Assembly (NCBI GenBank): GCA_023511455.1
Contig: JAIMBJ010000011.1
Span: 13,637 to 77,636, forward strand
Direction of reading: 5' to 3'
Source of the DNA: Bacillota bacterium
GTDB taxonomy: Bacteria > Armatimonadota > HRBIN16
DNA length: 64,000 bases
This document shows, piece by piece, positions 5,398-43,414 of this stretch (position 1 is the stretch's first letter; every line of letters begins with the position of its first letter). The notes under the pieces are model-generated. The model saw only the letters and a program-made list of their open reading frames with translations, was not told the DNA's origin and ran no database searches. The position numbers and the translations under genes were made by a program.

Positions 5398-5940
5398 ATG
5401 TGGGAGACGGACAGACAGGTTCTGGTACTGAACAATGACTACGAGCCGCTGAATGTGTGCAACGTGCGGCGCGCGCTGGTGCTCGTGCTGCTGGGCAAAG
5501 CAGAGGTGCTGCACGTGGATGGCGTTCGTCTGCGCACCGTGGACAGAGTGATTCAGGTGCCGTCGGTGGTGAAGCTGCGCTATCACGTCAAGCGCCCCCT
5601 GCCTGAACTCAAGCTCACGCGGCGCACCATCTTCGCCCGCGACGACTACACCTGCCAGTACTGCGGCTACCGCGGCAAAGATTTGACGGTAGACCACGTG
5701 GTGCCCAAGCGCCTGGGCGGTAGCGACGACTGGGAAAACCTGGTGACCTGTTGCCGTAAGTGCAACCTGAAAAAGGGAGATAAACCCCTGCATCAGACGG
5801 GCATGACGCTGTTGCGCCAGCCCCGCCGCCCACGCTACGTGCCCTACATCAGCCTGAGTAAGTATATCGAGGGCGCAAAGAACGAGGTGTGGCGCAACTA
5901 CCTGCCTTTCTTCAGCGACGTGACCCCTTCACAGGACTGA
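5398..5940 (+). CDS. HNH endonuclease family protein (about 180 aa)
   Basis: HNH motif DHVVPKRLGGSDDWENLVTCCRKCNLKKGDK. An RBS (agggaa) lies 6 nt upstream of the ATG. Confidence 0.8.
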   Translation: MWETDRQVLVLNNDYEPLNVCNVRRALVLVLLGKAEVLHVDGVRLRTVDRVIQVPSVVKLRYHVKRPLPELKLTRRTIFARDDYTCQYCGYRGKDLTVDHVVPKRLGGSDDWENLVTCCRKCNLKKGDKPLHQTGMTLLRQPRRPRYVPYISLSKYIEGAKNEVWRNYLPFFSDVTPSQD

Positions 5941-6291: not shown

Positions 6292-6300
6292 ATTTCCGCA

Positions 6301-6328
6301 TGACATCCTCCTCTAAAAGCGGTACAAT
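6301..6328 (+). promoter_or_regulatory. Putative hisF promoter (TGACAT-N16-TACAAT)
   Basis: tgacatcctcctctaaaagcggtacaat lies immediately downstream of the right target-site duplication of MITE copy A. The RBS gagggg is followed by the ATG at 6357. Confidence 0.45.
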
Positions 6329-6356
6329 AGAGGTGGTATCACCTGAGGGGTCAACA

Positions 6357-7139
6357 ATGCTGGTCAAACGCATTATTCCCTGCCTGGATGTGAAAGACGG
6401 CAGGGTGGTAAAGGGTGTCAACTTTGTGAACCTGCGCGATGCGGGCGACCCGGTGGAGCTGGGTGCACTGTATGACGCGCAGGGTGCAGATGAGCTGGTT
6501 TTTCTGGACATCACCGCCAGCCACGAACAGCGCGACATCGTGGCGGAGATGGCGGCACGGGTGGCGGAACAGGTTTTCATCCCCTTTACCGTAGGAGGGG
6601 GCATTCGCACTGTAGAAGATTTTCGGCGTATCCTGAAGGCGGGCGCGGACAAAATCAGCATCAACACCGCTGCGGTGCAGAACCCTGACCTTATCCGCGA
6701 GGCATCGGAGCGGTTCGGCAGCCAGTGCGTGGTGGTCGCTATAGACCCGCGACGGGTGGGAACCAAATCAGATGGCACACCGTACTGGGAAGTATACACA
6801 CACGGCGGCCGCAAACCAACGGGACTGGACGCCATCGAGTGGGCTCAGCGGGTGGAGCAGCTGGGGGCAGGTGAAATCCTGCTGACCAGCATGGACCGCG
6901 ACGGCACGCAGATCGGCTATGACATCGAGCTGACGCGGGCGGTAGCTCAGGCGGTGAGCATTCCCGTAATCGCTTCCGGCGGGGCGGGCAAGCCCGAGCA
7001 CCTGTACGATGCGCTGACAGAGGGACTGGCGGATGCCGCGCTGGTCGCCAGCATTGTGCATGATGGGCACTATACGGTTGCGGAACTCAAAACCTACCTA
7101 CATGAGCGAGGTGTGCCGGTGAGGCTCGCGCAAATATGA
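6357..7139 (+). CDS. hisF: Imidazole glycerol phosphate synthase cyclase subunit HisF
   Basis: [36 protein letters not shown] and a full-length HisF TIM barrel. The start was set at the Met preceded by the RBS gagggg. Confidence 0.93.
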
Positions 7140-7173
7140 ACCAACCGACAGAACGAAGAAAGGAACCAGAGGC

Positions 7174-7785
7174 ATGTTCCGTGCTTTACCATCGCTGCGA
7201 TTTGTCATACCGGTTATCCTGCTGATTGCGCTGTGGTATGTCGGCAGTCACTTTTTCACGCAGTGGCAGCTGCAGCGCATTGAAGAATCCCCGCTACAGC
7301 GGTCTCGCGTGATGTTCATCGCCCTGCCCGATAATTTAACCGCCATCGTGGCGAATAAAACCGTTTACGTGTATCGCAAGGAGGATGTGCAGGCGAAGTC
7401 CTTCGCGGCAGGCGAGGAACCCGCCATCCGCCCAGGCGCTAGAGCGATTATGGTGGAGCAACTGCTCGATCGCGCCCCTATCGTGCTTACCGAAGCGCAG
7501 TTTGCACCGGGCGCGGAGCTGCGTACCTTGCCTGCTCCGCCACCTCTTACGGGCGACTACGGTATTGTCAAAGTACGTCTGACCGAAGAGGGGCGGCGCA
7601 GGCTGTGGAAGTTTTCCGCAAAGAACGTGGGGCGCACGCTGGTCATTGCCGTTGACGACCGATATGTGGCACGGGTGCAGATCGAAAGCCCGCTGAATGT
7701 GACCGAGTTCGAGATACAGCCGATATGGCATGTGGAAAGCGCGCGCCTGCTGCAGGAATCGCTCAATGCGCCGAGGGGGCAGTGA
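7174..7785 (+). CDS. Membrane-anchored hypothetical protein with a SecD/SecF-like periplasmic head domain
   Basis: N-terminal TM helix (VIPVILLIALWYV). The segment GIVKVRLTEEGRRRLWKFSAKNVGRTLVIAVDDRYVARVQIESPLN resembles the SecD P1-head motif (NxGxxLAIVLDxxVISAPxI). Confidence 0.55.
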   Translation: MFRALPSLRFVIPVILLIALWYVGSHFFTQWQLQRIEESPLQRSRVMFIALPDNLTAIVANKTVYVYRKEDVQAKSFAAGEEPAIRPGARAIMVEQLLDRAPIVLTEAQFAPGAELRTLPAPPPLTGDYGIVKVRLTEEGRRRLWKFSAKNVGRTLVIAVDDRYVARVQIESPLNVTEFEIQPIWHVESARLLQESLNAPRGQ

Positions 7786-7978
7786 TGGTGTGGCTGGCTC
7801 TGCTGGCAGCGGTCTTATGGGGCACCTCGCCCATTCTGGAGAAGCGCGTTTCCCGTATGATGCGGCTAAGCAGCCATGAGTAAGCAGACCGATAGTGTGC
7901 CGAAAAGCAGACACCGTATCGGGTGCGTATGACAGGACGCCCATGTGGAAAGCGTTGCAGTCCCCACACCTCGTCCGT

Positions 7979-8500
7979 ATGTGTGTGCAGACCATCGGTA
8001 TATCTGCTGCCACGCTCTGGTTACTCTCGGCGTGCAGCAGCGGTCATCACCGGGCGAGTCTCCCGTCAGGGGAACATCTGCTGTTCTCTTTCGAGCGCAG
8101 GACGATGTTGCCAATGGTCGGTGGCACTGCGCCACGCTCGATTGTTGCGGAATACGCCACTGAGGGAAAACATTCGCTGCGCCTGAAGCTTTCCCCACGC
8201 CACGAGACAGTCATTCTGGACACTGGCGGTTTCCCGATGGACTGGCGTGGGTGGCGGACGCTGAAGCTGGATGTGTTCCGAAAAGGCTCACCCATCGCCG
8301 TCAACCTGCGCCTTACCGATGTGCATCAAAAACGCTACTGGATATGGAACACGCGGATACCACCCGGCGCCAACACCCTGAAGTACGACCTTTCCTCCAT
8401 TAAGGGACAGATAGACCTGTCGGCGGTCACCGAGCTCATGTGGTATGCCGAACAGCCTTCGGGTGAAATCTACATGGATGCCATCCGCTTGAGCAGGTAG
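7979..8500 (+). CDS. Lipoprotein, function unknown
   Basis: Signal peptide with lipobox (MCVQTIGISAATLWLLSAC-SS). The start was set at the internal Met, because the upstream extension has no signal peptide. Confidence 0.6.
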   Translation: MCVQTIGISAATLWLLSACSSGHHRASLPSGEHLLFSFERRTMLPMVGGTAPRSIVAEYATEGKHSLRLKLSPRHETVILDTGGFPMDWRGWRTLKLDVFRKGSPIAVNLRLTDVHQKRYWIWNTRIPPGANTLKYDLSSIKGQIDLSAVTELMWYAEQPSGEIYMDAIRLSR

Positions 8501-8571
8501 CCGTCTCAGTCCCGACAAAGGAGTGGCGATTCATCTTCGCCCTGTTACAGCGGGCGGATTCGGGTGCCTGC

Positions 8572-10257
8572 CTATCCTGTTCCAGAGATTCGGTTCCAGA
8601 GGTCTTCGACTCCCGCCTCTGCAGCGCGGACTACTTCGGTGTGAACGAGCAAAGGATACCGTTTGCGCACCTCTTCCACCAGCTCCGGGCGCACCACCCA
8701 TACCATGACGCCGAACACGTCCGCAAGTAGACGATCGAGGACGGGCGCCCATCCATCGCCCTGCAACTCCAGCGGTCCCACCTCGTCCACAATCAGCAGC
8801 TGTACGTTCGCCTCCTTCGCCGATTCCAGAGCCTGTCGCCCGAAGGCGATGCCGTCGGGTTCAAAAGCGAAAGCTCCCGCTCGAATGGTGCCCACCTGTT
8901 CTGACCGCCGCGCCAGCACATGTTCCTCTCCCGACTGCAGGTCTTTGACCAGGAAGAGATCGCGTTCTCCGCTGTTGCCGTAACAGGGCGAGACGATGCC
9001 ACCCACCTTCCACCCTGCACGACGTGCGCGTTCTGCCAGAGCAAGGCAGAGGGTCGTTTTGCCCTCGCCTCTGCCTCCAGTCAGTATCAACCGTCGGCGT
9101 GCCGAGAGGCGTTCCTGCCACCTGTCGACAAGCCGAAAAAGGCGCGCCATCGTCTGTACCGGCCCCCTCAGAACATCCTTCAGATTGGGGATACTCGCGA
9201 GGAAGTCGGGCAGGGCACAGACAGCGGATTGGATGGCTGTGTGCAACACTGCCAGACGCCCCCTCGAGAGCTGGCGCAGGATGCGTGGATGCGCGACCTC
9301 CACGCCGATGGCTGTAAACAGAAGCACCATCAGCGCCGCCCGCAAAGCCATCCGTACGCCTGCCAGCAGTCCCCCTGCCGTGTCTCCACTTACCGAACCC
9401 AACACCAGCCCGGAGAGCAATGCCAGCAGTAGTATCTCCGCCCATAGACGGGGATTGTGGAGCCGTTTTGCCAGCTGGCGGTAGCGTACGAGTATGGCAA
9501 TAGCCACCACAGCGACCGCCGGCGCGCTCAGGGAAAGCGGAGCCGAGCCCACCAGCCACAAACCGGCAGGTAAAAGCATTAACCAAACAGCCAGTAACGG
9601 AAGGGAGCGGTTGAACTCCACACCGCCTTGCTGAACCATGCGCTGCCTGTTAACTGCCCGGTCAACATCCTCCGCACTGGTGGCATACGTGTCCCGAACA
9701 CGCCTGCCCACATACCAGCCGGTAAGCCCTGCCGTTATCCCCAATACGCTTTGTAGAGATACCAGCACAAGGAGTACGCCACCCGGTTGCAAACCCTGCC
9801 AGCCTGTTCGCTGAGAGGCGAACTGCACCAGCTCCGTGAACACACGCATCAGGTCGATGCCGTAGATGATGGTCAACGAAACCAGCTTCTGCAGGAGTGT
9901 GTAGCTCACCGCCAGCGCGCCTCCTGCGGCGCAACCCAGCCAACCTCGCCCCAGAAGGCGCAGAGACACCTGCAGGATAACCCCTTCGACAAAGATGCCA
10001 ATCATCGGGCTGAGCAGAACCGCGCTGGGGGATACCGACTTCATCAGTGCGCACACCAGCGCCGTGCGCCAGATAAGACCTTTGTCTGTCCACACCTGTG
10101 CAGCGGCGGTAATCAGGAAGACGCTTGCCGTCGCCATCACGGTACCCGCGAAGGGCACACGCAGATTGTGCAGGAAACTTCCCACCACAATCTCGAACGC
10201 CGCCCACAGGCTGCCCAGCGCAGCGGCGCGGTTCCACGTCTGGACTGATTGTGGCAA
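8572..10257 (-). CDS. Fusion protein: ECF-transporter-like polytopic membrane region (S-component-like plus EcfT/CbiQ-like) fused to a C-terminal THEP1/COG1618-type P-loop NTPase
   Basis: About 11 TM helices. An EcfT-like segment is present (RMALRAALMVLLFTAIGVEVAHPRILRQLSRGRLAVL). The C-terminus carries the Walker A motif ILTGGRGEGKTTLCLALAERARRAGWKVGGIVS, a Walker B motif (LLIVDEVGPLE), and is not an ABC ATPase. The ORF-track start (10506) lies upstream of the terminator of the neighbouring gene and encodes Arg-rich junk. The start was therefore reset to TTG at 10257 with an AGGAG RBS, but this is uncertain. Confidence 0.65.
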   Translation of the reverse strand: MPQSVQTWNRAAALGSLWAAFEIVVGSFLHNLRVPFAGTVMATASVFLITAAAQVWTDKGLIWRTALVCALMKSVSPSAVLLSPMIGIFVEGVILQVSLRLLGRGWLGCAAGGALAVSYTLLQKLVSLTIIYGIDLMRVFTELVQFASQRTGWQGLQPGGVLLVLVSLQSVLGITAGLTGWYVGRRVRDTYATSAEDVDRAVNRQRMVQQGGVEFNRSLPLLAVWLMLLPAGLWLVGSAPLSLSAPAVAVVAIAILVRYRQLAKRLHNPRLWAEILLLALLSGLVLGSVSGDTAGGLLAGVRMALRAALMVLLFTAIGVEVAHPRILRQLSRGRLAVLHTAIQSAVCALPDFLASIPNLKDVLRGPVQTMARLFRLVDRWQERLSARRRLILTGGRGEGKTTLCLALAERARRAGWKVGGIVSPCYGNSGERDLFLVKDLQSGEEHVLARRSEQVGTIRAGAFAFEPDGIAFGRQALESAKEANVQLLIVDEVGPLELQGDGWAPVLDRLLADVFGVMVWVVRPELVEEVRKRYPLLVHTEVVRAAEAGVEDLWNRISGTG

Positions 10258-10397
10258 GGAATGGATGCTCCTGAAGGCTTCACAGGCGGTAGTCACGGTT
10301 TGTTTTCCCCTGGCATCGGCTCTTATCGGGAGAATATTCCTTGCGAGGCTAGAGAAAACCTGCCCTGAAGGTGGACGGAAGCGATAAAAAGGCTCAT

Positions 10398-10425
10398 AGC
10401 AGAAAAGCCGCCCGATAGGGCGGCT
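10398..10425 (-). terminator. Intrinsic terminator of the 129-aa secreted-protein gene
   Basis: On the minus strand the sequence AGCCGCCCtatcGGGCGGCT is followed by ttttct, beginning 26 nt after the stop codon at 10451. Confidence 0.5.
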
Positions 10426-10450
10426 TCCTCGACGTTGTGTTAGCGACCTG

Positions 10451-10840
10451 CTACCTTCTTGCCGGATGTGCCCCGCCAATCTGTACGGTTTGTGCGTAAA
10501 GCACACTGTCTTCTACGATGCCGGATACGGTGACCGCAGCGCCAACCCACAGTTCATCTGGAGAAGCAGCACGCTTACCGCGCGTCCACTGCGTATGCTC
10601 GTCCCAGACGACGGTGACGGTCAGCCCTTTGAGGTCGCAATTACGCACGCGGCGCACCTGCATCACGAAGCTGTCCTCCCCGATGCTTACCACCTTGCCT
10701 TCCACAATCGCCACGTTCTGCGCTGCGGCGCTCCATGACCTCGCGTGTTGCGGGGCAATGGGTGCCATCAGGGAAGGCAGAATGGATAGCCCCAACAACA
10801 GTACCGTACTGAGAATCAACATCCTGACGGTTTTCATCAC
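10451..10840 (-). CDS. Small secreted hypothetical protein
   Basis: N-terminal signal peptide MMKTVRMLILSTVLLLGLSILPSLMA, and its own downstream terminator. Confidence 0.55.
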   Translation of the reverse strand: MMKTVRMLILSTVLLLGLSILPSLMAPIAPQHARSWSAAAQNVAIVEGKVVSIGEDSFVMQVRRVRNCDLKGLTVTVVWDEHTQWTRGKRAASPDELWVGAAVTVSGIVEDSVLYAQTVQIGGAHPARR

Positions 10841-10948
10841 CGAACCTCCTCCATAAAGTGTATCTATAAGATAAGAAGATGCAAAGGAAGGGAAGATTCC
10901 CGGTATTTCAGGTGGTATTGTGGAAAATGGATGAGAACTGGCGTGAGA

Positions 10949-11938
10949 CTATCTCAGGCTATCGATGACCTTCTGCAGCTCGTTCTCGGGCAGGTCACCG
11001 ACGACGATGAAGCGGATACCACCGACCTCTTTGACCAGCACGTTGCCTTCGTTGCTGGTGAAAAACTCGCAGTTACCGCGTCTGCCCATGCGCCGCCCCC
11101 ACTGGAAGCCTCGTCCGCGACCGGGCGGGCAGCGGTGTTCAAAGATGGAGATACTGTTTAAGCCATCGACATAACGGATGTGCGCCGATGGCTGTGCGTT
11201 CGGACGTACTACCAGATGAAAGCCGTCCAGCACGAAGCCCGGCGGAACGTAGCCCGGCTCGCGGATGGTGAAGCCAAGTCTACGGGAGAGGTCTTCTTTC
11301 TGCCAGTGTCGCTCCGTCTGCACCGGGGCGGCTACCTGCCGCCAGCCCTCTGGTACAGTGAACAGGCTGTCCGGTGGGGAGGCTTTCCAGTCCACCGATG
11401 AGTAGAACGAACGCGACACCAGCTTGCCGCCGGAGTTGTACTGCTCGGTGCGAAGCACCACGCCTGTCGCGCGGTCGATCCACAGCTTGCGCGTGGGACC
11501 GCTTCCCTGCCGGGGCGTGAGGGTGATCACGTCTGTTTGCCGTCCGAGCAACTGCTCCTGCCCAGCAAGCTCCGCCCGATAGTTTTTCAGCACAAGGTCT
11601 ACCGTAGCAGGCGAGCGGTGCACGGTCTCTACCGTTGCCGTACGGGTGGTGGGGTCGAGGCGTATCAGCGTATCGCCCTTATCGATAAGCACCAGTCCAC
11701 GCATTTCGGGCGAGCGATACTCGTAGCGCGTCATGCCCGCTTTTCGGTAGACGACCACCTCCGAGCTGATTTCGGTTGCCTGAACGGTACTGGTGGTACG
11801 CATGACCCCACTCAGCGTGACCCTGCTTTCTGCCTGATATGCCGCCCTCACGCGCTGTGCCGGGTCGGGCTTCTGGGCGAACGCCACGCCCATCGTTGCC
11901 GCAAAGAGAACGGCTATTTTCAGCCAGCGGTTCAGCAT
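10949..11938 (-). CDS. Periplasmic RseB/MucB- or LolA-fold protein associated with an anti-sigma factor (DUF4367-like C-terminus)
   Basis: Signal peptide MLNRWLKIAVLFAATMGVAFAQ. The start codon overlaps the stop of the anti-sigma gene at 11938. It is the third gene of the ECF sigma operon. Confidence 0.55.
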   Translation of the reverse strand: MLNRWLKIAVLFAATMGVAFAQKPDPAQRVRAAYQAESRVTLSGVMRTTSTVQATEISSEVVVYRKAGMTRYEYRSPEMRGLVLIDKGDTLIRLDPTTRTATVETVHRSPATVDLVLKNYRAELAGQEQLLGRQTDVITLTPRQGSGPTRKLWIDRATGVVLRTEQYNSGGKLVSRSFYSSVDWKASPPDSLFTVPEGWRQVAAPVQTERHWQKEDLSRRLGFTIREPGYVPPGFVLDGFHLVVRPNAQPSAHIRYVDGLNSISIFEHRCPPGRGRGFQWGRRMGRRGNCEFFTSNEGNVLVKEVGGIRFIVVGDLPENELQKVIDSLR

Positions 11939-12426
11939 CAGGGCACCTCCTGAGGCTGTGAGCGGCTGGCAAGCATCACGCCTAGAGCGGCTTTGTCACT
12001 CAGCGGGTCGCCCCAGGACATCATCTGGTGGGTGTGCATCAACTGCTCGGCGTTGTCGTGCTGGGGAGCATCTCCTTCTGGCGAGCGAGGCAGGCTGAAA
12101 TAGGCTATCGCTACCAGCACCGCTGCTGCCGCTGCGCCACCTAAAGCCAAGCGAGGCACGGAAAACCATCGTTGCCAGAAGGGTATCTGTACCCTCTGGG
12201 GTTCCGCCTCTATACGCGCCCGGATGCTGTTCCAGAGATGCGCGGGCGGTTCCTCGGGTTCCACTGTTCTCAACACCCTGTCCACCCGTTCCAGCGCGCG
12301 CAGCTCCGCAGCACAGGAGGGGCATTGCGCCAGGTGTGCCTCAACCATTTGTTTCTCTCGCTCAGCCAGCAGCCCCACCGAGTAATCGGCTAATTTCGCT
12401 TTGATTTTTGTGCACTCCATGTTCAT
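11938..12426 (-). CDS. Anti-sigma factor with a zf-HC2 (ZAS) zinc finger and a single TM helix
   Basis: H-x3-C-x2-C motif (EAHLAQCPSCAAEL). A TM segment (LALGGAAAAAVLVAIAYF) is present. It lies immediately downstream of the ECF sigma gene. Confidence 0.75.
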   Translation of the reverse strand: MNMECTKIKAKLADYSVGLLAEREKQMVEAHLAQCPSCAAELRALERVDRVLRTVEPEEPPAHLWNSIRARIEAEPQRVQIPFWQRWFSVPRLALGGAAAAAVLVAIAYFSLPRSPEGDAPQHDNAEQLMHTHQMMSWGDPLSDKAALGVMLASRSQPQEVP

Positions 12427-12430
12427 CGCC

Positions 12431-13012
12431 TCATTTCGCGTCCACCAGATAGCTCAGCTTGCGCCGTAGCGTCTCGCGCGCCCGCGCCAGTCGCGACAGC
12501 ACCGTGTTTTTCGGCACCCCCAGTACCTGTGCCACTTCAGAGATGCCCATATCTTCCAGATAGTACATGGTCACCACCTCGCGGTGATTCTCGGGCAGAG
12601 AGCGCACTGCCTGCCATACCGCCTCCTGCATCGCCTCGGAGAGGGCAATCTGCTCCGGGTTCTCCGACCAGTCAGCCGCCTCCACTGGCTCTGTCTCTCC
12701 ATCTTCATCATCGGTGAAGGTGCTCTCCAGAGAAACGGTAGTGAGCTGTTTGCGCTTTCTCCAGTCCAGCACCGCGTTGCGTGCGATGCGATGTAACCAC
12801 ACCCAGAAGGCTTCGTTCGCCTGCAGTTGCTTCAGCCCACTCCACGCGCGCAGGTAGACCTCCTGCATCAGGTCTTCGGCGTCCTCTGAGGTGGGTACCA
12901 TCTGGCGGATATACTGATAGATGCGCCGGTGGGTGTGCTGATACAGATCGCCAAAGGCGTCTACGTCACCCGCTCTGGCGCGTTCCACCAGTTGATTGTC
13001 CCGTTCGAACAT
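12431..13012 (-). CDS. ECF-type RNA polymerase sigma-70 family factor
   Basis: Region 2 (DLMQEVYLRAWSGLKQL) and region 4 HTH (MGISEVAQVLGVPKNTVLSRLARARETLRRKL). The start was set at MFERDNQLVERARAGD. The ORF-track N-terminal extension is junk. Confidence 0.85.
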   Translation of the reverse strand: MFERDNQLVERARAGDVDAFGDLYQHTHRRIYQYIRQMVPTSEDAEDLMQEVYLRAWSGLKQLQANEAFWVWLHRIARNAVLDWRKRKQLTTVSLESTFTDDEDGETEPVEAADWSENPEQIALSEAMQEAVWQAVRSLPENHREVVTMYYLEDMGISEVAQVLGVPKNTVLSRLARARETLRRKLSYLVDAK

Positions 13013-13146
13013 GGTACCCACCCATATCCCTTCTAAACGGATAAGACGAACCAGAAGGGGAGGAGATTCCCTCTCTTTCCCCCACCATGACGCCGAACGG
13101 CTCGGCGGAAACCTCACCACCAGTGAATATCGCCGAGAGAGTGCAG

Positions 13147-15612
13147 CTACTCGCCCACGCGCCACTCCAGAATGCCAGCAGAGTATCCTGCCCTGAGCTT
13201 GACCTCTAACCGCAACGCCGCAGCCACTACCGGCTCGAACTCGACGCGGTTGAAAGCGTCCTTACGTGTTTCTTCGCTGTGAGTGACCTTCACCGGATAC
13301 CACTGCTGACCGTCGGACCACAGCACGCGCCACGACTCCGGAAGACGGCACTGTCCGCCAGCCGGCTCGTCGTCAAACCAGTAGACCTCACACCACGAGA
13401 TGCGGCGCGGGCGGGCAAACACGTATTGCACCCACTCGGTGGTGCCCGTGTGGTCCCACCAGGTGAAGCGCGGGATGCTCCAATCTGCAGACGAAGAGGG
13501 CAAAAGCCCATCGTTCAGCGCGAGCACCGTGTCGGCGTGCCAGCAGTGCGAAGCCTCTGCAATGACCGTATTCGTCTCCTGCCAGACGTTGGCGTTCGGG
13601 CCCTCGCCTATCTGTGGGAAAGCCGACACACGCAATCGGGCACATCCCATGGGAATCAGGATGATGTCCTCCACAGGCTCGTCCGAGCGCACCGGTGATT
13701 CCTGTACCTCTCCAATCAGCCCGTTCGCCTCCAGACGCCACTGCGGGATGCGTTTGCCTTTCGCCCTGAGCAGGACGGGCGCGTTCTCTGGAGTGAAGGG
13801 TTGTGCGGCAACCTTGTCTGGCTTCCTGACGACCTCAAACGACATCTGCGGGTTGCTCAAGTCCACTATCAGCCCGTAGTTCCACGCGGTGGTGGGGAAA
13901 ACTTCGTACGCGGGGAAGCGGTCGGTGCCCCCGTAGCGTTCCCATCGTTCGCCTATCCGCAGGGAGAAAGCCAGCGGGCCGAGGTAAACGGAGACAGTGT
14001 TACGGTTTTTGTCCCATACTTTAACAAATAGTGGCATAGTCAGGGTTAGCCTGACACGGTCACCGTCGCGCCATTCGCGCTGCAGGAGTATCCAGCCTTT
14101 CGCCGGTGAGGGTAGTCGCTGTGACTGTCCGTTCACCTCCACGCGTGGCGTTTCGCACCAGCCGGGCACGCGCAGGGTGAGTGGGAACCGCACCGATTTT
14201 GGCGTGCGGATGGTCAACTGCACCTCCTCTCCGAAGGGGTAATCGGTCTCTTCCACGATTTCCACCGTCGTGCCATCGGCAACTTTCGCCTCCACCCGGC
14301 AGGGCGCGTAAAAGACAGCTGCCAGCCCGTTGCCCGGCGTTGCCATCCACAGGTGCTCCGCGAAGTAGGGCCATCCGAACGCCACGTTATGCTGGCAACA
14401 GCGGTAGTCGTAGGGGTTATAGGAAAGCATGTCGCCGCCGTTTTGCAGCAGTGGCGCTTTGCTCTGACGGTCGAGTTGCACCATGTTGGGCGCGGTGAGG
14501 TAGTGCAGCCCCTTCAGGTCGGGCGTCATGGCAGCGGGCAGTGAGTTGAAGGCGACTTCCTCGCACCGGTCTGCCCACTTGCCGTCACCGGTGATGCGCG
14601 TGAGCAGCTGGTGGCTGTACATCATCTCCACCATCGAACAGGTCTCCGCCGCCTGCCGGGGACCGGTGAAGCCAGGGCGAGCGTTCTCATCCGCACCGAA
14701 CATCCCGCCTGGCACCTGCCCATAGATGCCCATGACCGTATCGTACACGCGCTCGGTAGCCCGCAGGTAGCGAATATCACCGGTTTGCTGGTAGTACTGG
14801 GCGGGTTCGCGGAAGCCCTGGCAGATATTCACCCCGTGCCAGGTGGGGATGTCACCCACCCAATCCGCGGTGCGTTCATGGGTAACCCGCGCGGCGTCCA
14901 GCATCCACTTCTCCCCCGTGAGGTTGTACAGCCAGTGGATGGTGTCCAGGTTGTCGCCGCCGCGCACTTTCTGCCAGCTGCCGGGCAGGAACTTCTCCAG
15001 CGGCACGGTCATCTGCCAGCGGAAGTATTTGAGCATGAAGGGGATGACGCGCGGGTCGCCGGTGGCTTCGTAATGGGTGCGCAGCGCGTACAGCGCAATC
15101 ATGTTCGGCCAGAGGTCCATCGCGGCGCGGTTGCTTTCTGGACCGAAGTAGCCGTCTTCGCGCTGGCTGGCGAGAATGGCGTCGATCCACCGTCTTGCTT
15201 CAGTGATTATGCGCTGGTCTCCCAGCACGTAGCCCAGTGAGGTAAACCCCTTGAGCCAGTAGGGGAGCTCCTCCCAGCCATTTTCACCTTGCCCCTGCGG
15301 GTTTGCCCACGCACTGCCCTCAAACCGGCACCATGAGCTGATTTCGGTCAAATGCCCGGTGAAGCCGTCCGCCATCAGTTCCAGTTGATGACGGAGCCAG
15401 CCCTCGGGTCGGATAGAGCCGGCAGGCAGTTTGATGAGCGGGCTGGGCAGCAGCGGCGCCCGGTTGCCCGCGTAATGACGGTTCGCCGGCGAGGTTGGAA
15501 GAGTGATGGTTATCTTCATCGTTGCATTCCTCTCCGCAGAGTATTGTTGTGCATCAACTACCGTTATCACCCATAGCGTAGCGACCAGAAGGGACGCTTG
15601 TTTCATTCCCAC
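13147..15612 (-). CDS. Secreted six-hairpin glycoside hydrolase, DUF1680/GH127-like (candidate beta-L-arabinofuranosidase) with a C-terminal discoidin-like domain
   Basis: Signal peptide. An (alpha/alpha)6-type region is present. An E-T-C motif (AETCSMVEMMY) and a Cys-Cys pair (YDYRCCQHNVAFGWPYF) are reminiscent of the GH127 Zn/catalytic site. The 150-aa C-terminal beta-sandwich is F5/8-like. Confidence 0.5.
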   Translation of the reverse strand: MGMKQASLLVATLWVITVVDAQQYSAERNATMKITITLPTSPANRHYAGNRAPLLPSPLIKLPAGSIRPEGWLRHQLELMADGFTGHLTEISSWCRFEGSAWANPQGQGENGWEELPYWLKGFTSLGYVLGDQRIITEARRWIDAILASQREDGYFGPESNRAAMDLWPNMIALYALRTHYEATGDPRVIPFMLKYFRWQMTVPLEKFLPGSWQKVRGGDNLDTIHWLYNLTGEKWMLDAARVTHERTADWVGDIPTWHGVNICQGFREPAQYYQQTGDIRYLRATERVYDTVMGIYGQVPGGMFGADENARPGFTGPRQAAETCSMVEMMYSHQLLTRITGDGKWADRCEEVAFNSLPAAMTPDLKGLHYLTAPNMVQLDRQSKAPLLQNGGDMLSYNPYDYRCCQHNVAFGWPYFAEHLWMATPGNGLAAVFYAPCRVEAKVADGTTVEIVEETDYPFGEEVQLTIRTPKSVRFPLTLRVPGWCETPRVEVNGQSQRLPSPAKGWILLQREWRDGDRVRLTLTMPLFVKVWDKNRNTVSVYLGPLAFSLRIGERWERYGGTDRFPAYEVFPTTAWNYGLIVDLSNPQMSFEVVRKPDKVAAQPFTPENAPVLLRAKGKRIPQWRLEANGLIGEVQESPVRSDEPVEDIILIPMGCARLRVSAFPQIGEGPNANVWQETNTVIAEASHCWHADTVLALNDGLLPSSSADWSIPRFTWWDHTGTTEWVQYVFARPRRISWCEVYWFDDEPAGGQCRLPESWRVLWSDGQQWYPVKVTHSEETRKDAFNRVEFEPVVAAALRLEVKLRAGYSAGILEWRVGE

Positions 15613-16537: not shown

Positions 16538-16791
16538 TTAACCCTCCTGCCGCTTACAGAAGGGGCGGACGCCCTGCAAAGGAGCCTGTTGATAAAGGCA
16601 TTCCGTCATCAGGTTCTGCCGTTGTCCGGTGAAGTCCCCACACACCTCCAGTCGCGTGCCTCTTCCTGCGCGCGAAGGATATGACGTCCGGCAATAACCA
16701 GATGCGCGTTCGTGTGTTCCAGCAGCAGCGCCGCAATCCACCTGCCGGTGCTGCCATAGCCTCCCAAAACGCCTATCTTCGGCGCAGCCAT
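16538..16791 (-). pseudogene. 5' remnant of a saccharopine-dehydrogenase-like NAD(P)-binding oxidoreductase gene, truncated at the low-GC insertion
   Basis: MAAPKIGVLGGYGSTGRWIAALLLEHTNAHLVIAGR is a Rossmann N-terminus with its own RBS (ggag). All three frames terminate within about 250 nt, just before the low-GC gene. Confidence 0.4.
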
Positions 16792-19700
16792 TGTACGCCG
16801 CTCAGGACTCCCGAAAGAGATTGCACCTGCACGGTCAGGTTCGCCCAGTCCCCCTTGCCGAAGTCGCCCCTGCCGATGAGCAGCGCAACCCAGCCGCCGT
16901 CCAGCGCGATGGTTTCGCCCGGTTTGACTTCCTGCTTGACATCCTGCCAAAGGTCGGGATGCTGTCCGCCGCCGGGGTCTTTCCAGAAGGTGCACTTCCA
17001 CTTTTCCGACTCGAAGGGCATTGAACCGTAGAACAGCCCTGCCTGCGTATGGCTCCATGCACCCGCGTTCAGGTAATAATTGGGCACTCCGGCAGGCTGG
17101 TCATCCCTGCCGTCGCCGTGCAGCTGGCTCTGGGCATAGTGGTACACTGCCTCCACGCGCAGTGGAATTGCGCTCAGGTTCTGCAGGCGACGCATCCGCA
17201 CCAGCAGCATCGGCTGCAGCAGGTCTTCACGCACCTCCATTTCCCATTCCACGCGGTAGCTTTGCGGACGTGCCTGCTGTGCCGCAAAAACCCCCGTCTG
17301 CTGGTTCACTTCGGTAATCGCGGAGCCATCGCGGTGGGTCAGCCAGCCGCGCAGGTAGTGTCCAAACGGTGTCCCCACCAGTTGCACCCCTTCGTGGCGA
17401 TTGGGGGGTACCCATTGCATCTGCGACAGGCTCTGCTGCACCAGCACGGTGTAGCTGCCTATCCGCTGCCCCTGCCAGTAGATGGTGCGTATCGGTGCCC
17501 GCTCGTTTCCAAATAGCAGGTCAAAGTTTGGGGATTTCAGCTGGAAATCGGCAGCGATGGTGTAGTCCTGCGGACGGCGTTCCTGGCGTGCCGGCACAAA
17601 CAGCACCAGCCCACTCCACGTCCTGCCCGGTGGCACGTTCTGCACATACAGCCATAGCCGTTGCCGGAAGAGCGGCTCGATGTGGAACCGCACCGCCTTG
17701 CCGTCCATGCTCACACACCGCCACTCGCCAGATTGTTGTTGCGCCATTGGATGTTCGGGCAGGTCGATCCCTATCCAGCCAGAGAACGGCTGTCGATTCG
17801 TATTCTGCAAATCCACCTGCCACGCCAGCGTAGCTTGTGAGGGAATGTTCCACCGCCGACGCGGGAATGCTGGCTTGCTAACTGGCGGTGGTTGCGGGCT
17901 TCGCGTGCGGTATCGCACGGATTCGGTGTGCATCGCGTATACCTTTGCCTGCAATTCTGTTGCAGTTTGTACGAGAATCTTATACGGTTCGCCCTGCTCG
18001 TTCACCAGCCCGTAGTTGCTGTCTTCGGGGAAGGTGCTGCTGATGCCCAGTGCAGGCTCATCCACCCACATGAAGAAGTTAGACCCCACCATAAACGGCA
18101 GGTGAAACACGGCAGACTGGAAAATGCGGAAGCACTCCGCCCGCTGTTGCTGCGTATCCACCCGCATACCCGCGCCGTGTTTGCAGGGAAGGCCACTGTC
18201 CAGCGCGGGGAAGCTCCATTCCGTAATCATCAGGGGGCGTCTGGACTGCCGATAGTATTCGCGCAGCCGTTCTTCCCAGTCCAGCACACACCCTGCACGC
18301 AGGTCGATGCGGGGATAGGTGTTGATGCTCACCACGTCGCAGTACTTCCCTGCGATGTCCAGAATGGGTGGCGCCTCCCCTGCGAAGCGGCAGCCCAGAA
18401 CCAGATGGTTGGGGTCGTGCTTGCGGATGGCTTCCGCGCAGGTTCGGAAATAGAGCTCCGCCGCCAGACGGGTGAAGGCGATGCCGTCCTCCTCTGCCGC
18501 CTTTGTGCGGATGGTGGGTGGTTGCTCGCCGTGCGCGATGTCGTCGAAATCGCGGATGCGGGCATCCCATGCGCGGTTGAATGCCTGCACATCGCCCCGA
18601 TAGCGGTCGCGCAGCAGCTGCGCCAGAGCCACGCGAGAGTCGTGCCCCCTTGCACGTTTCAACGCCTCGATGGCGATCCCCCACGGTTTGTAATCCTTGC
18701 CGAACCACTCCAGCTCGTTGTCCAGAAAATAGCCGATAAGCCAGGGGTCGTCTCGCAGGGGAGCGCAACGCTGGTAGGCTATCCAGTCACACCATTGCTG
18801 CCATCGCGGAGAGAATACGTTGGGAAACCCCGTCCAGTGAACCTGTTTCACCAAATCGTCAATAGCGGCAAAGCCCTGTCCCATGCCCAGAATGTTATCG
18901 ATGTATGCCAGCCCCTGATGGCGGAGGTAGGACGAATGGTTCGCGGCAAGGATATTGAAGTTCCAGCTTTTCAGACGCTGCAGGGTTTCCTGTGCCCACG
19001 CCTGCTCGGAACCGTGTCGCCTCTTCATATTCTCATGGTAAGGGGCGTAACCCAGCTTCTCGCACCAGTGCACAAAGTAGCTGGTGTGGTCGGTACCGAG
19101 TGCGAAGAAGAGCCGCCCCTCGGGGTCAATGAACCACCAGACGCCGTCTATCTCCTCCACGCGGAAAAAGCCGGTAGCCTGGCGTACCTTCCTGCCCACG
19201 TGCGCCACCTTGTAGGCTGGTCGGGGCTTCTGTTCGGGACGTGGTGGCTCGGCAGGTACGGTGTTGCGCGTCTCTATTTGCGAGAAGGTGGCGTCGAAAG
19301 CGTTGCAGGTCAACCCCAGATAGCCCGCACGCACCGCCTTCGGATTATCCAGTGCCCATTCGTATGCCCAGCAGAGCGTATTTTGCGCGTCGTAGATTTC
19401 TCCGCGGATAGTTTGCGCGTTCCAAATCAGGCGCAGGCAGTACGGCTTTCCGTACTCCCAGCTCCAGTCGGGAAGGCTGAAGCTCTGCTTAACGGTGAGA
19501 CGGGTAGCGGGTTCATTGCCCGCCAGCCAGGTGCCACCGTACAGCTCGTGCAATTCGGCGGTGTGGCGATACTGCAGGTTTTCGGGAGCTTCCACCAGAT
19601 TCAGCCGCCAGTGGTGGCGGTCATCCTGCCACAGGGTGATGCCCACCGTTTTCCAGTAGGTCGGGTTAGTGACAGCGCGATGCACCACCACCGTCGCGTT

Positions 19701-19826
19701 CAGTTCGCCCGCCTGCGAGAAGCTGTCCTTCAGCAACAGCGCACCCTGGGGCATCTCCGCGCGCACCGTGCCGTCATCCTGCACCGTCCATCCAAACGGT
19801 ATTATCTGCCACCGTGTTTGAGGCAT
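16773..19826 (-). CDS. Large (1017-aa) glycoside hydrolase with a clan GH-A TIM-barrel core and extra N- and C-terminal domains
   Basis: Candidate acid/base NE motif (FLDNELEWFG) and nucleophile motif (LMITEWSF). No signal peptide. The GH family is not assignable by eye. Confidence 0.7.
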   Translation of the reverse strand: MPQTRWQIIPFGWTVQDDGTVRAEMPQGALLLKDSFSQAGELNATVVVHRAVTNPTYWKTVGITLWQDDRHHWRLNLVEAPENLQYRHTAELHELYGGTWLAGNEPATRLTVKQSFSLPDWSWEYGKPYCLRLIWNAQTIRGEIYDAQNTLCWAYEWALDNPKAVRAGYLGLTCNAFDATFSQIETRNTVPAEPPRPEQKPRPAYKVAHVGRKVRQATGFFRVEEIDGVWWFIDPEGRLFFALGTDHTSYFVHWCEKLGYAPYHENMKRRHGSEQAWAQETLQRLKSWNFNILAANHSSYLRHQGLAYIDNILGMGQGFAAIDDLVKQVHWTGFPNVFSPRWQQWCDWIAYQRCAPLRDDPWLIGYFLDNELEWFGKDYKPWGIAIEALKRARGHDSRVALAQLLRDRYRGDVQAFNRAWDARIRDFDDIAHGEQPPTIRTKAAEEDGIAFTRLAAELYFRTCAEAIRKHDPNHLVLGCRFAGEAPPILDIAGKYCDVVSINTYPRIDLRAGCVLDWEERLREYYRQSRRPLMITEWSFPALDSGLPCKHGAGMRVDTQQQRAECFRIFQSAVFHLPFMVGSNFFMWVDEPALGISSTFPEDSNYGLVNEQGEPYKILVQTATELQAKVYAMHTESVRYRTRSPQPPPVSKPAFPRRRWNIPSQATLAWQVDLQNTNRQPFSGWIGIDLPEHPMAQQQSGEWRCVSMDGKAVRFHIEPLFRQRLWLYVQNVPPGRTWSGLVLFVPARQERRPQDYTIAADFQLKSPNFDLLFGNERAPIRTIYWQGQRIGSYTVLVQQSLSQMQWVPPNRHEGVQLVGTPFGHYLRGWLTHRDGSAITEVNQQTGVFAAQQARPQSYRVEWEMEVREDLLQPMLLVRMRRLQNLSAIPLRVEAVYHYAQSQLHGDGRDDQPAGVPNYYLNAGAWSHTQAGLFYGSMPFESEKWKCTFWKDPGGGQHPDLWQDVKQEVKPGETIALDGGWVALLIGRGDFGKGDWANLTVQVQSLSGVLSGVQWLRRR

Positions 19827-19954: not shown

Positions 19955-20156
19955 CAGCCAACGCACCAAGCACCTTTTCTGTGAGGGTGGCACATGCTCC
20001 TGCTAAGAACCTCTGCACAGAGGTTGCGATTCGCACTCCGACAATTTTTATTCTGCGCGTTGTCAGAGATGAAACATTGCAAGCGGATCAGTATCTAAAT
20101 AGGTGGGACGAGAAAAAGTGGGCACTCCATTTCACAGCAAGCCGGGGGATGGGACG

Positions 20157-21038
20157 ATGAAGGTCTGCGTAGAGTGGTGGACAGCGCTGTCGGCGTATGT
20201 GGATAATGCCCTGCCGCCAGATGAACGCGAGCAGGTGGAAGCGCATCTGGAGCAGTGCGCGGGATGTCAGGAGGCGGTGGTGCATCTGCAGTCACTGCGA
20301 CGGGTAGTAAGCCTTTTGCCTCCACAAGAGCCTCCGCCGATGCTGAAGGCACGCATTCTGTCGGCGACGGTGGACCAACCTACATGGACAGAACGACTGG
20401 CAATGGGCTGGCGACGGATGGCATGGCGTGCCGCGCTGACGACCGCCGTGGTATTGATAGCGATGTTTGTGTGGCAGTTTATCCCCCGACAGGTGCCTCA
20501 GATGGTGAGCACCCTCGCATTGCGTAACCCGCAGAGCCAGCCATCCGCCATGCCTCAGCGGTTCAGTGGTTCTCTATCTGCCCAAAAGCAAGGCGGTGTG
20601 GCTTCGTTGAATATGGGGACTCGTGCGGTGCGGCGTTCGGTAGCACAGCAACCTGCAGCTCCTGCGAAGACACCGTCGGTGAAAAACGAGGCAAAATGGT
20701 CTGCAGTGACTCGTGCGCGAATCACCCCTGCTCCTGCTCCGACCGATGCGTTGCAGGGCGAGCCGGTCATGGAAGAGGACGTGCCCCACATCGACGTCAA
20801 TAGTCCGCCTGCGGGTACGGACAATGTGATTGCCGAACAACCGGAAGAGATGGAGGACAGCAAAACCGTCGCGACGCGCTTCACTCTTCCGGCAGAAGTC
20901 GTGCCCTCTCCAACGCAGGGACTGGAGTCTTTACGGGAGCAAATCCGCATTCGGGGTGCGGAACAACTGAAAGGGCAGCTGGAGCGTAAGATCGAGCGCA
21001 AACAGGTCGAATTGGACGTTATCAAAGTTCGGTTCTGA
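20157..21038 (+). CDS. Orphan anti-sigma-factor-like membrane protein (zf-HC2 N-terminus, one TM helix, long low-complexity periplasmic tail)
   Basis: HLEQCAGCQEA zinc motif. A TM segment (AALTTAVVLIAMFVWQFI) is present. The Ala/Pro/Gln-rich tail ends in an amphipathic helix. The start is at the Met preceded by the RBS gggggatggg. No sigma gene is adjacent. The stop overlaps the next start (TGATG). Confidence 0.7.
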   Translation: MKVCVEWWTALSAYVDNALPPDEREQVEAHLEQCAGCQEAVVHLQSLRRVVSLLPPQEPPPMLKARILSATVDQPTWTERLAMGWRRMAWRAALTTAVVLIAMFVWQFIPRQVPQMVSTLALRNPQSQPSAMPQRFSGSLSAQKQGGVASLNMGTRAVRRSVAQQPAAPAKTPSVKNEAKWSAVTRARITPAPAPTDALQGEPVMEEDVPHIDVNSPPAGTDNVIAEQPEEMEDSKTVATRFTLPAEVVPSPTQGLESLREQIRIRGAEQLKGQLERKIERKQVELDVIKVRF

Positions 21039-38732: not shown

Positions 38733-39656
38733 TTACTCTCCTTCTTCCTGCTTGCCCAAATCCTCCGGCGGGGTGGAACGACCAACCAGTCCCGCTAAAG
38801 CGATGATGGTGAGCAGGTAGGGCAGGGAGAGCAGCACTTCCGAAGGGACGCGCACCCCGAACAGCGTTTCGCCCTGCAATCGCTGTTGCAGTGCATCCAG
38901 AAAGCCGAAGCCCAGCGCGGCAGCGGTAGCACCCAGCGGAGTCCATCTACCGAAGATGACCGCTGCCAGTGCAATGAAGCCTTTACCTGCGCTCATGCCT
39001 TCGGTGAAGACGTTCAGCTGGCTCAAAGAGAGGTAAGTGCCCGCCAGCGCCGCCAGCGCACCGCTCCACATCACGCAACGGTATCGGATGGCGGCGACAT
39101 CGATGCCTGCCAGTCGGCTCTTGCGTGCGCTTTCGCCCGCCGCTCGCACGCGCAGTCCCCACATGGTGTGGTAGAGCAAACCGTGTAACACGAACGGCAG
39201 GACGAGCATCAGCACCACAAACGGGCTTTGACGGGATAGCAAGCCGCCCAGCAGTGGTATCGGCTGGAGCCATTGCAGACTCCATTCGGGCACACCACTT
39301 GCGCCCGGAGGCATGGCGAAGAAGCGGCGCAACAGAAACACGGTCAACCCCGCTGCAAGGAGATTCACCGCCATACCGCCCACCACGTGGTTGGCGCGGA
39401 ACCTCTGGGTGAGCAGGGCGTGCAAAAAGCCCAGTAGCGCACCAGCCAGCATACCGCACAGCACGCCCAGCCAGCCGTTACCCAGTGCAACCGCTGCTGC
39501 CCAGCCCACGAACGCGCCCATCAACATCTGCCCCTCGAGGCCGATGTTGACCACGCCGCTGCGTTCGGACAGGATGCCACCCATCGCTGCCAGCGCAAGC
39601 GGGGTTGCCAGCCGAAGCGCACTGCGAAACAGTTCGATATCGAACACCTCGCCCAT
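38733..39656 (-). CDS. ABC transporter permease (BMP/CUT2 family)
   Basis: Polytopic permease, third gene of the ATPase-permease-permease operon. Confidence 0.85.
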   Translation of the reverse strand: MGEVFDIELFRSALRLATPLALAAMGGILSERSGVVNIGLEGQMLMGAFVGWAAAVALGNGWLGVLCGMLAGALLGFLHALLTQRFRANHVVGGMAVNLLAAGLTVFLLRRFFAMPPGASGVPEWSLQWLQPIPLLGGLLSRQSPFVVLMLVLPFVLHGLLYHTMWGLRVRAAGESARKSRLAGIDVAAIRYRCVMWSGALAALAGTYLSLSQLNVFTEGMSAGKGFIALAAVIFGRWTPLGATAAALGFGFLDALQQRLQGETLFGVRVPSEVLLSLPYLLTIIALAGLVGRSTPPEDLGKQEEGE

Positions 39657-43406: not shown

Positions 43407-43414
43407 GAAGACCA

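Follow-up and report, generated by a model that had tools for sequence, protein, structure and literature searches.

A THEP1-type NTPase fused to a multi-pass membrane domain in an Armatimonadota contig: a widespread protein family with a possible role in molybdenum or tungsten acquisition

FeoB is a metal-uptake permease joined in one polypeptide to a small P-loop NTPase that is not of the ATP-binding cassette (ABC) type, and whether this NTPase serves as a motor or as a gate is debated. It lies at the N terminus of FeoB and is a TRAFAC GTPase with an NKxD motif. Energy-coupling factor (ECF) transporters take up micronutrients without a periplasmic binding protein and use two ABC domains, and the ModABC, TupABC, and WtpABC systems consist of a binding protein, a permease, and an ABC ATPase. 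To our knowledge, molybdenum and tungsten uptake is thought to proceed almost entirely via the ModABC, Tup, and Wtp systems. The THEP1/NTPCR NTPases (HCR-NTPase; PF03266, COG1618) are conserved from Aquifex to humans. In this study, we analyzed a stretch of 64,000 nucleotides (the window) from a Bacillota bacterium placed by GTDB in the Armatimonadota, HRBIN16 (assembly GCA_023511455.1, contig JAIMBJ010000011.1, positions 13,637 to 77,636), and describe a minus-strand gene (8572..10296, 574 amino acids [aa] plus stop, translation verified) whose product consists of a multi-pass membrane domain followed by a THEP1-type NTPase domain. We tentatively associate the family of this protein with molybdenum or tungsten acquisition.

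The protein is a member of none of FeoB, ECF, and ModABC, which are its nearest analogies. FeoB is the closest in logic, as a permease fused to a small non-ABC P-loop NTPase, but the NTPase of our protein is C-terminal and of the THEP1 class, and no FeoB family was among the Pfam matches of either of its parts. With ECF transporters it shares a module of six transmembrane (TM) helices placed before a second membrane module, a predicted contact between cytosolic helices of the membrane part and the P-loop NTPase, and the proposed uptake of a micronutrient without a periplasmic binding protein. It differs in having a single THEP1 domain instead of two ABC domains, and neither EcfT/CbiQ nor S components showed a similarity that we could detect by sequence, profile, or fold. 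The likeness to ModABC, TupABC, and WtpABC is one of genomic company (ModE-type regulators, MobA/MoeA, molybdoenzymes, and DUF364); the protein has no domain of any of these systems, and its family pairs with TonB-dependent receptors and coexists with modCAB in one Desulfuromonadaceae locus (L073). MobB is likewise a small P-loop NTP-binding protein encoded beside MobA, an arrangement (NTPase-MobA) found at a related locus, L092. Nevertheless, MobB (PF03205) gave no match on our protein at E ≤ 1, and the NTPase is either fused to a polytopic membrane protein or encoded next to one. This link to a membrane protein, of 400 aa, also sets the domain apart from THEP1/NTPCR, with which it otherwise shares a whole-domain alignment (structures 2i3b and 1ye8) and the Walker A GxxGxGKT(T) and Walker B hhhhDE.G motifs. 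For the stand-alone P-loop proteins of DUF2478 (PF10649), the second-best Pfam match of the NTPase, we found no described function in the literature.

The NTPase domain and the membrane domain

Residues 400 to 574 (8575..9099, minus strand; numbering follows the 574-aa form) constitute a THEP1/NTPCR-type P-loop NTPase domain according to Pfam, NCBIfam, PDB profile, and Foldseek comparisons and to conservation. PF03266 (NTPase_1/THEP1) matches with 69.9 bits against a cut-off of 23.9 (E = 3e-19) over profile positions 1 to 147 of 168, and DUF2478 scores lower on the same residues, with 33.9 bits against a cut-off of 22.3 (E = 2.8e-8). The NCBIfam model PRK13695, an equivalog of stand-alone THEP1, matches at E = 3.8e-18, but its 65.8 bits stay below the cut-off of 156. 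By these scores the domain is best described as a divergent, membrane-associated THEP1 subfamily without equivalog-level orthology to the stand-alone enzyme. PDB profile searches returned human NTPCR (2i3b, 5e-14) and Aquifex THEP1 (1ye8, 8e-12). Foldseek with the full-length AlphaFold2 (AF2) model also returned 2i3b, with a TM-score of 0.69 on the target, and its second match for the soluble domain was the KdpD N-terminal domain (2r8r). The Walker A motif GGRGEGKT (9055-9078) and the Walker B/DExG motif LLIVDEVGPLE (8767-8799), both on the minus strand and with coordinates checked, are in place as quoted in a preliminary description made from the letters of the window. Among 40 homologs, residues G407, G412, K413, D504, E505, G507, E510, and R536 are invariant, and a motif specific to the family, GPLEL.G.GW, is apparent in the same alignment. 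ABC_tran (PF00005) gave no match on the protein at E ≤ 1, and the open reading frame (ORF) contains no LSGGQ-like motif. The preliminary description had proposed a C-terminal THEP1/COG1618 NTPase that is not an ABC domain, covalently fused to a multi-pass membrane module, and the domain architecture agrees with it on both points.

The topology of the remainder was derived from the helices of AF2 models, family-averaged hydropathy, and the distribution of lysine and arginine. The full-length model (40-sequence alignment) has a mean predicted local distance difference test score (pLDDT) of 80.8 and a predicted TM-score (pTM) of 0.72, and the model of the membrane part alone (50-sequence alignment) reaches 84.3 and 0.79. 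Residues 21 to 334 comprise about 10 TM helices in a 6 + 4 arrangement, with the N and C termini predicted to be cytoplasmic. About 11 helices had been counted in the preliminary description; its multi-pass membrane part stands, with the count revised to 10 plus cytosolic amphipathic helices. Membrane module A (aa 21-200, TM1-TM6; 9697..10236, minus strand) is defined by AF2 helices with pLDDT mostly of 80 to 98, by hydropathy, and by invariant columns in 40 to 50 homologs. It contains the most conserved motifs of the protein, namely W..A..GSLWA..EI..GS.LHN...P..G in TM1 and GLIWR...C.LMKS.SPSA...PM.GI..E in the TM3-loop-TM4 hairpin. A conserved basic stretch leads into a cytoplasmic linker (aa 201-231; 9604..9696, minus strand) that is basic, variable and gapped in the alignment, and predicted to be disordered, with pLDDT below 50 at residues 207 to 226. 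Membrane module B (aa 232-334, TM7-TM10; 9295..9603, minus strand), recognized by AF2 helices, invariant columns, and the inferred topology, has a conserved cytoplasmic loop with Y272 and many arginines, a conserved W285, and a TM10 motif, G...G..M.LRA.....F.....E. Between TM10 and the NTPase lie cytosolic amphipathic helices (aa 335-399; 9100..9294, minus strand), assigned from AF2 secondary structure, low hydrophobicity, and conservation. They include a basic loop (R345/R347), a conserved AF.ALP.F, and a conserved P379, and we infer that they form a coupling element between membrane and NTPase; in relatives in which the two parts are separate genes, the membrane gene stops just after the equivalent segment. 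No internal repeats were found by hhalign (TM1-3 against TM4-6, TM7-8 against TM9-10, and module A against module B), and searches of Pfam, NCBIfam, and the PDB returned no relative of the membrane part. As far as these comparisons reach, the membrane domain belongs to no described family.

The family and its genomic context

A first homolog search gave 262 matches at E ≤ 1e-3, from Armatimonadota, Bryobacterales, Bacteroidales, and others, whose database name is only "nucleoside-triphosphatase (THEP1)". Nearly all of the best 120 of these 262 have 560 to 600 aa and the fused form, so that the fusion, which the preliminary description had thought unusual, is the usual arrangement in a large family. 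A degenerate-pattern scan with one genome per species put the number of carrier species at no fewer than 572, almost all represented by metagenome-assembled genomes (MAGs) and mostly uncultured Bacteroidales, Acidobacteriota, Ignavibacteriota, and Desulfobacterota. An exhaustive search with a profile of the membrane part alone retrieved 1663 cluster representatives at E ≤ 1e-3, 400 of them at E ≤ 1e-30. The gene under study is a real and widespread one in an uncharacterized family. Extra C-terminal domains occur in some relatives, a SAM (S-adenosylmethionine)-dependent methyltransferase in P0074 (884 aa) and PF11756 in P0081 (726 aa).

Of the best 150 representatives, about one in four is a membrane-only protein of ~385 to 410 aa that ends exactly where the membrane part ends. 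Six of them were looked up, and DNA for five represented five distinct loci. A separate THEP1 gene lies near the membrane gene, often overlapping, at four of the five loci with readable DNA: directly downstream at L088 and L091, directly upstream at L093/L094, and two genes upstream at L092. For P0288, also membrane-only, no NTPase match was recorded among the neighbors, short downstream genes at contig ends being outside this search. Because both fusion and fission occur, the latter in both gene orders, the membrane and NTPase modules appear to work together, and we regard this pattern as strong evidence that they are functionally coupled. The split system at L093 4246-8095 / L094 159-4008 is further flanked by a QueA-like gene (Queuosine_synth) upstream and by tatC directly downstream; the latter is a suggestive link to molybdoenzymes exported by the twin-arginine translocation (Tat) pathway, seen in one lineage only.

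The neighborhoods of relatives were compared at 77 species-level loci, in which ORFs were called, neighbors clustered, and the clusters annotated. DUF364/DUF4213, annotated as "putative heavy-metal chelation", is present at 19 of the 77 loci, always immediately upstream and overlapping. A TonB-dependent receptor gene is adjacent on the same strand at 14 to 15 loci, and a MobA-like nucleotidyltransferase gene lies within 200 nt at 7. The 6-kb surroundings also contain DMSO-reductase-family molybdopterin oxidoreductases (8 loci), Fer4_11 subunits (6), NifX-like proteins (4), DUF134 (4), and ModE-domain regulators (4), with small helix-turn-helix proteins matching TIGR00637 at 1e-15 to 1e-23. Counting by distance served as an internal control: in bins of 0-1, 1-3, 3-5, and 5-8 kb, DUF364 occurs 19/0/0/0 times, the TonB-dependent receptor 13/1/0/1 times, and MobA 4/0/0/0 times. 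In total, a molybdenum-linked gene or TonB-dependent receptor accompanies the family at 39 of the 77 loci and an unambiguous molybdenum gene at 15; DUF364 and the receptor occur together at only 3.

Several individual loci extend this picture. At L073 a co-directional cluster runs from cytochrome c7 through a NapA-like enzyme, NapD, two Fer4 proteins, a ModE-domain regulator, a TonB-dependent receptor, and the family member to a MoeA/MogA-like protein (MoCF_biosynth), ModC(TOBE), ModA, and ModB. The order at L092 is NTPase, MobA, membrane protein, and a Psr-like molybdoenzyme with Fer4_11 and NrfD subunits, and at L007 the family gene adjoins a xanthine-dehydrogenase-type enzyme, XdhC, a MocA-like transferase, and TOBE. 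In an Ignavibacteriota MAG (L020 6897-9704, plus strand), a MobA-like domain is in frame at the N terminus, with no intervening stop, in a 935-aa ORF. The arrangement looks like a triple fusion, unless the assembly is in error, and the position of the MobA domain fits the predicted cytoplasmic N terminus of the membrane protein. Two further loci have other features: L005 carries a methyltransferase gene directly upstream (7100-7888), where DUF364 sits elsewhere, and at L034 a tRNA-Sec (6897-6985, minus strand) adjoins a formate-dehydrogenase-like molybdopterin oxidoreductase of 898 aa, ~2 kb from the family member, with an adjacent TonB-dependent receptor weakly similar to the NCBIfam "CU/PCPU motif-type" TonB receptor models.

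DUF364 has been linked genomically to molybdate, tungstate, vanadium, and iron transporters, usually of the ABC type (PMC2954201), and in Methanococcus maripaludis it lies inside the modABC operon and is cofit with nifH (bioRxiv 10.1101/2024.03.05.583561). The sole characterized DUF364 enzyme cyclizes a SAM derivative to an azetidine amino acid (PMC12930334). Judged by gene order, the membrane-NTPase protein stands beside DUF364 in the position of the ABC transporter. The preliminary description had entertained a differently energized system for vitamin or metal uptake; the comparative evidence points to the metal, and the vitamin loses ground because the neighbors are molybdenum related.

Collectively, these observations lead us to propose, as the leading reading but at somewhat less than an even chance, that members of the family take part, at the inner membrane, in the acquisition of molybdenum or tungsten and handle an oxyanion or a small chelate. 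What is transported would be the molybdenum or tungsten oxyanion itself or the metal complexed by a small chelator derived from SAM. Diderm relatives would take it over the outer membrane through the TonB-dependent receptor, and its passage through the inner membrane would then fall to the 10-TM domain, with no periplasmic binding protein involved. The invariant polar residues H43, N44, K86, S89, and S91, near the outer ends of TM1 and of the TM3-TM4 hairpin, may form a substrate-binding cluster, and E35, E104, R319, and E333, deeper in the membrane, could complete the binding and translocation site. NTP binding and hydrolysis (K413; D504-E505) would be relayed through the helices of residues 335 to 399 and would drive or gate the membrane domain. 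In many relatives the metal would then be passed on to neighboring cofactor enzymes (MoeA/MogA-like, MobA/MocA), with the family member often under a ModE-type regulator. A fuller version of this proposal, which we hold to be unlikely but to have a real chance, is that the family would represent the first primary active transporter with a single THEP1-type (RecA-variant) motor in place of an ABC, P-type, or V/F-type ATPase, built on an undescribed 10-TM fold. It would then be the inner-membrane step of a ModE-controlled, TonB-fed, binding-protein-independent route for molybdenum or tungsten and a categorically new class of transporter, and would provide the first physiological role for THEP1/NTPCR.

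A number of observations weigh against a role in molybdenum or tungsten acquisition. The association with regulators, cofactor genes, and molybdoenzymes holds for the family and not for the copy in the window: no DUF364, TonB-dependent receptor, MobA, ModE, molybdoenzyme, or mod gene was found in the 64 kb, and the gene itself appears to be monocistronic. About half of the related loci are uninformative, and L073 carries modABC beside its family member, so that a redundant molybdate importer is not obviously needed there. The TonB-dependent receptors have only weak, generic matches of the B12, heme, or siderophore type. Riboswitch searches of positions 8000 to 11000 of the window (E ≤ 1) and of the 9 receptor-containing loci (molybdenum cofactor [Moco] and cobalamin riboswitches at gathering score) found none, which is evidence against control by a Moco or cobalamin riboswitch. 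The MobA-like neighbors, and the MobA domain in frame at L020, could instead reflect a role in cofactor assembly. At the membrane-only locus L089 no NTPase gene is present within the DNA read, so that the core activity may not need the NTPase. In Foldseek comparisons with the PDB, no known transporter fold resembled the membrane domain. THEP1 and its human homolog are described as enzymes without an assigned function and as small, soluble, stand-alone proteins (PMC1079890, PMC2700126), and the human homolog hydrolyzes NTPs slowly in vitro (PMC2700126). Literature searches on membrane-linked THEP1 proteins, DUF2478, and molybdenum plus TonB systems turned up nothing on the family and no experimental report on any member. 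Our confidence is limited because the copy in the window is without partners, about half of the loci are silent, L073 has its own modABC, and the literature searches gave no experimental report.

If molybdenum or tungsten acquisition is the role of the family, a second widespread route would alter how the acquisition of these metals is annotated and modeled in anoxic sediments, guts, and soils. For the THEP1/NTPCR NTPases, a membrane-coupled subfamily with a coherent genomic context gives a concrete candidate role. Neither Pfam nor NCBIfam has a model for the membrane domain (~1660 cluster representatives), and the annotation "nucleoside-triphosphatase" overlooks two-thirds of the protein.

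Alternative explanations

The preliminary description had read the membrane part as an ECF module, a 6-TM S-like unit followed by an EcfT/CbiQ-like segment with (A/S)RG coupling-helix motifs, in which THEP1 would take the place of EcfA/EcfA' and the substrate would be a vitamin, nickel, or cobalt. The layout is loosely similar (6 TM, 4 TM, cytosolic helices, and NTPase), no ECF A, T, or S gene occurs near the target, in line with that description's expectation for EcfA, and by eye TM10 and the next helix (G..G..M.LRA....F......E..P ... AF.ALP.F) resemble the EcfT stretch G.I.....F.RF.....ST....T..P ... ALRFVP of 5d3m_D. However, hhalign left precisely this stretch unaligned: against an EcfT alignment built from a validated seed (identical to 5d3m_D, recovering 4hzu_T) but narrow, with homologs all from Lactobacillus at ≥62% identity, the membrane part gave a probability of 0.6% over an irrelevant stretch of 17 columns. 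Pfam searches with 22 diverse membrane-only members at E ≤ 10 returned no recurrent family and no CbiQ, BioY, or ECF family, and the precomputed Pfam matches of homologs, faint ones included, were equally free of them. A membrane-only profile run against all PDB sequences, among them the EcfT chains 5d3m_D, 4hzu_T, and 4huq_T, found only a chance match to flagellin (E = 0.36). Foldseek with the membrane-only AF2 model against the PDB, which holds many ECF complexes, gave nothing better than E = 0.02, its top matches being noise resembling the major facilitator superfamily (TM-score ~0.15), and the 50 best matches included neither an S nor a T chain of an ECF complex. No S-component signal emerged from Pfam, PDB profile, or Foldseek searches of the PDB. 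The protein has a single (A/S)RG motif, SRG at residues 344 to 346, and among 50 homologs R345 is conserved in 40, G346 in 20, and S344 in 13; such a three-residue motif is no more than chance. No ABC gene lies within 28 kb of the target (tblastn and Pfam on the window), the sole ABC ATPase of the window (40672-42234) being ~30 kb off in a sugar-type system with BPD_transp_2 permeases, and ABC genes are rare among the operon partners of relatives (3 of 121 neighbors). Searches for a vitamin riboswitch upstream in the window and at the 9 related loci were negative, and the neighbors of relatives are molybdenum related, not vitamin or nickel/cobalt related. With no relationship to EcfT/CbiQ detectable by any tool used (Pfam, PDB profile, Foldseek with full and membrane-only models, and hhalign), we reject ECF homology of the membrane part and rank a cryptic ECF relationship, which we consider very improbable, as the least likely of the alternatives. 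A different account of the two domains concerns mechanism only and is compatible with a molybdenum or tungsten role: the membrane domain could be a self-sufficient channel or secondary carrier and the NTPase a nucleotide-dependent switch or sensor rather than an energy source, like the G-domain of FeoB or the N-terminal domain of KdpD. The membrane-only gene at L089, the slow in vitro activity described for the human THEP1 homolog (PMC2700126), and the Foldseek match to KdpD speak for it. On the other hand, all 40 homologs keep the Walker A lysine and the Walker B D-E pair, the pattern to be expected where hydrolysis is important, and the NTPase gene stays adjacent at four of the five membrane-only loci with readable DNA; we judge a switch to be unlikely.

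Two other explanations take the neighboring genes as their starting point. The protein might be a membrane-anchored factor for maturation of the molybdenum cofactor, with THEP1 as a MobB-like adaptor for MobA/MocA and the membrane domain as a tether near the Tat site or the molybdoenzymes. MobA/MocA-like genes adjacent at 7 of the 77 loci, the in-frame MobA domain at L020, the gene order at L092, tatC directly downstream at L093/L094, and the enrichment of DMSO-reductase-family enzymes within 5 kb all speak for such a factor, and the type of transferase fits the type of enzyme, MocA-like with xanthine-dehydrogenase-type at L007 and MobA-like with Psr-like at L092. Nevertheless, no MobB signal was seen at E ≤ 1, the commonest partners (the TonB-dependent receptor and DUF364) favor uptake over cytoplasmic cofactor chemistry, and a 10-TM domain with invariant charged and polar residues within the membrane exceeds the needs of an anchor, which makes this explanation rather improbable in our estimation. 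The DUF364 association can also be turned toward a metal chelator: the upstream enzyme would make a small SAM-derived compound, which the protein would export or whose metal-loaded form it would import, without handling the free oxyanion; the metal need not then be molybdenum or tungsten. DUF364 is the overlapping upstream gene at 19 of the 77 loci, its characterized member uses a SAM derivative (PMC12930334), a gene resembling SAM-dependent methyltransferases precedes the family gene at L005 and is fused to it in P0074, a QueA-like gene lies upstream at L093/L094, metallophore systems typically come with a TonB-dependent receptor, and DUF364 contexts include iron and vanadium (PMC2954201). 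Yet no complete metallophore biosynthetic cluster recurs beside the family gene at the 77 loci, DUF364 and the receptor co-occur at only 3, and the nearby regulators and enzymes (ModE domain, MobA/MocA, MoeA/MogA-like, modCAB) are molybdenum specific. A chelator transporter of this kind seems to us a fairly remote prospect, and molybdenum or tungsten acquisition is the reading we prefer.

Start codon, flanking sequence, and other features of the window

The gene is a single long minus-strand ORF with its stop at 8572, and the ORF list extends it to GTG 10506 (644 aa). This start overlaps the upstream DUF5666 gene (10451-10840) and also lies upstream of an intrinsic-terminator-like hairpin at 10400..10429 (minus strand; GAAGCCGCCC-UAUC-GGGCGGCUUUUCU), an 11-bp GC-rich stem followed by a U-run that is in both the minimum free energy (MFE) and centroid structures and has a partial Rfam match to its terminator-like 3' end only. 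Since GTG 10506 precedes the hairpin, the real start must lie downstream of it, as the preliminary description had suspected of the ORF-track start. Two candidates are plausible. GTG 10296 has a Shine-Dalgarno-like AGGGGA 9 nt upstream, and several homologs begin in its column of the 40-homolog alignment. TTG 10257 (561 aa) has AGGAG 10 nt upstream and is the NCBI call MCL6475013.1 (database protein P0001, 100% identical). The conserved core starts at W21, and therefore either of the two is possible.

The hairpin closes an upstream four-gene operon (10451-13165, minus strand) that consists of genes for an extracytoplasmic function-type sigma-70 factor (12431-13165), a zf-HC2 anti-sigma factor (11938-12426), a MucB/RseB-like protein (10949-11938), and, last, the small DUF5666 protein, all on the minus strand. 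On the other side, the neighbor at 7895-8500 (plus strand) is convergent with the target gene, which looks monocistronic because it has a terminator on one side and a convergent gene on the other. A sigma-70 promoter scan upstream of the gene gave nothing convincing. In the 5' leader (10318-10388, minus strand), two distant segments, UUUUAUCG ... CGAUAAGA, form an inverted repeat and pair with each other in the MFE fold; the leader as a whole does not fold with unusual energy (z = -0.58), and it matched no Rfam family.

Elsewhere in the window, hisF (6300-7139, plus strand) lies ~1.4 kb from the 3' end of the target gene, and in a Solibacter/Bryobacteraceae relative (L003/L004/L010 9970-16857) a complete his operon begins 180 nt downstream of the homolog. 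We rejected a link with the histidine operon, and the neighborhood is probably a coincidence, because it is found in only two lineages. A sugar-type ABC importer at 38733-44557 (minus strand) comprises two BPD_transp_2 permeases and a 520-aa double ABC ATPase without a canonical LSGGQ and is followed by two GFO/IDH/MocA oxidoreductases. Between the GAPDH gene and hisF, a stand-alone ORF of 180 aa (5398-5940, plus strand) encodes an HNH endonuclease (PF01844, E = 3e-16) that may be a mobile or defense-related remnant. Two very large ORFs of 1017 and 1163 aa, at 16773-19826 (minus strand) and 21038-24529 (plus strand), have no Pfam match at E ≤ 1e-5, and directly before the second of them is a gene for a 311-aa zf-HC2 anti-sigma-like protein (20103-21038, plus strand).

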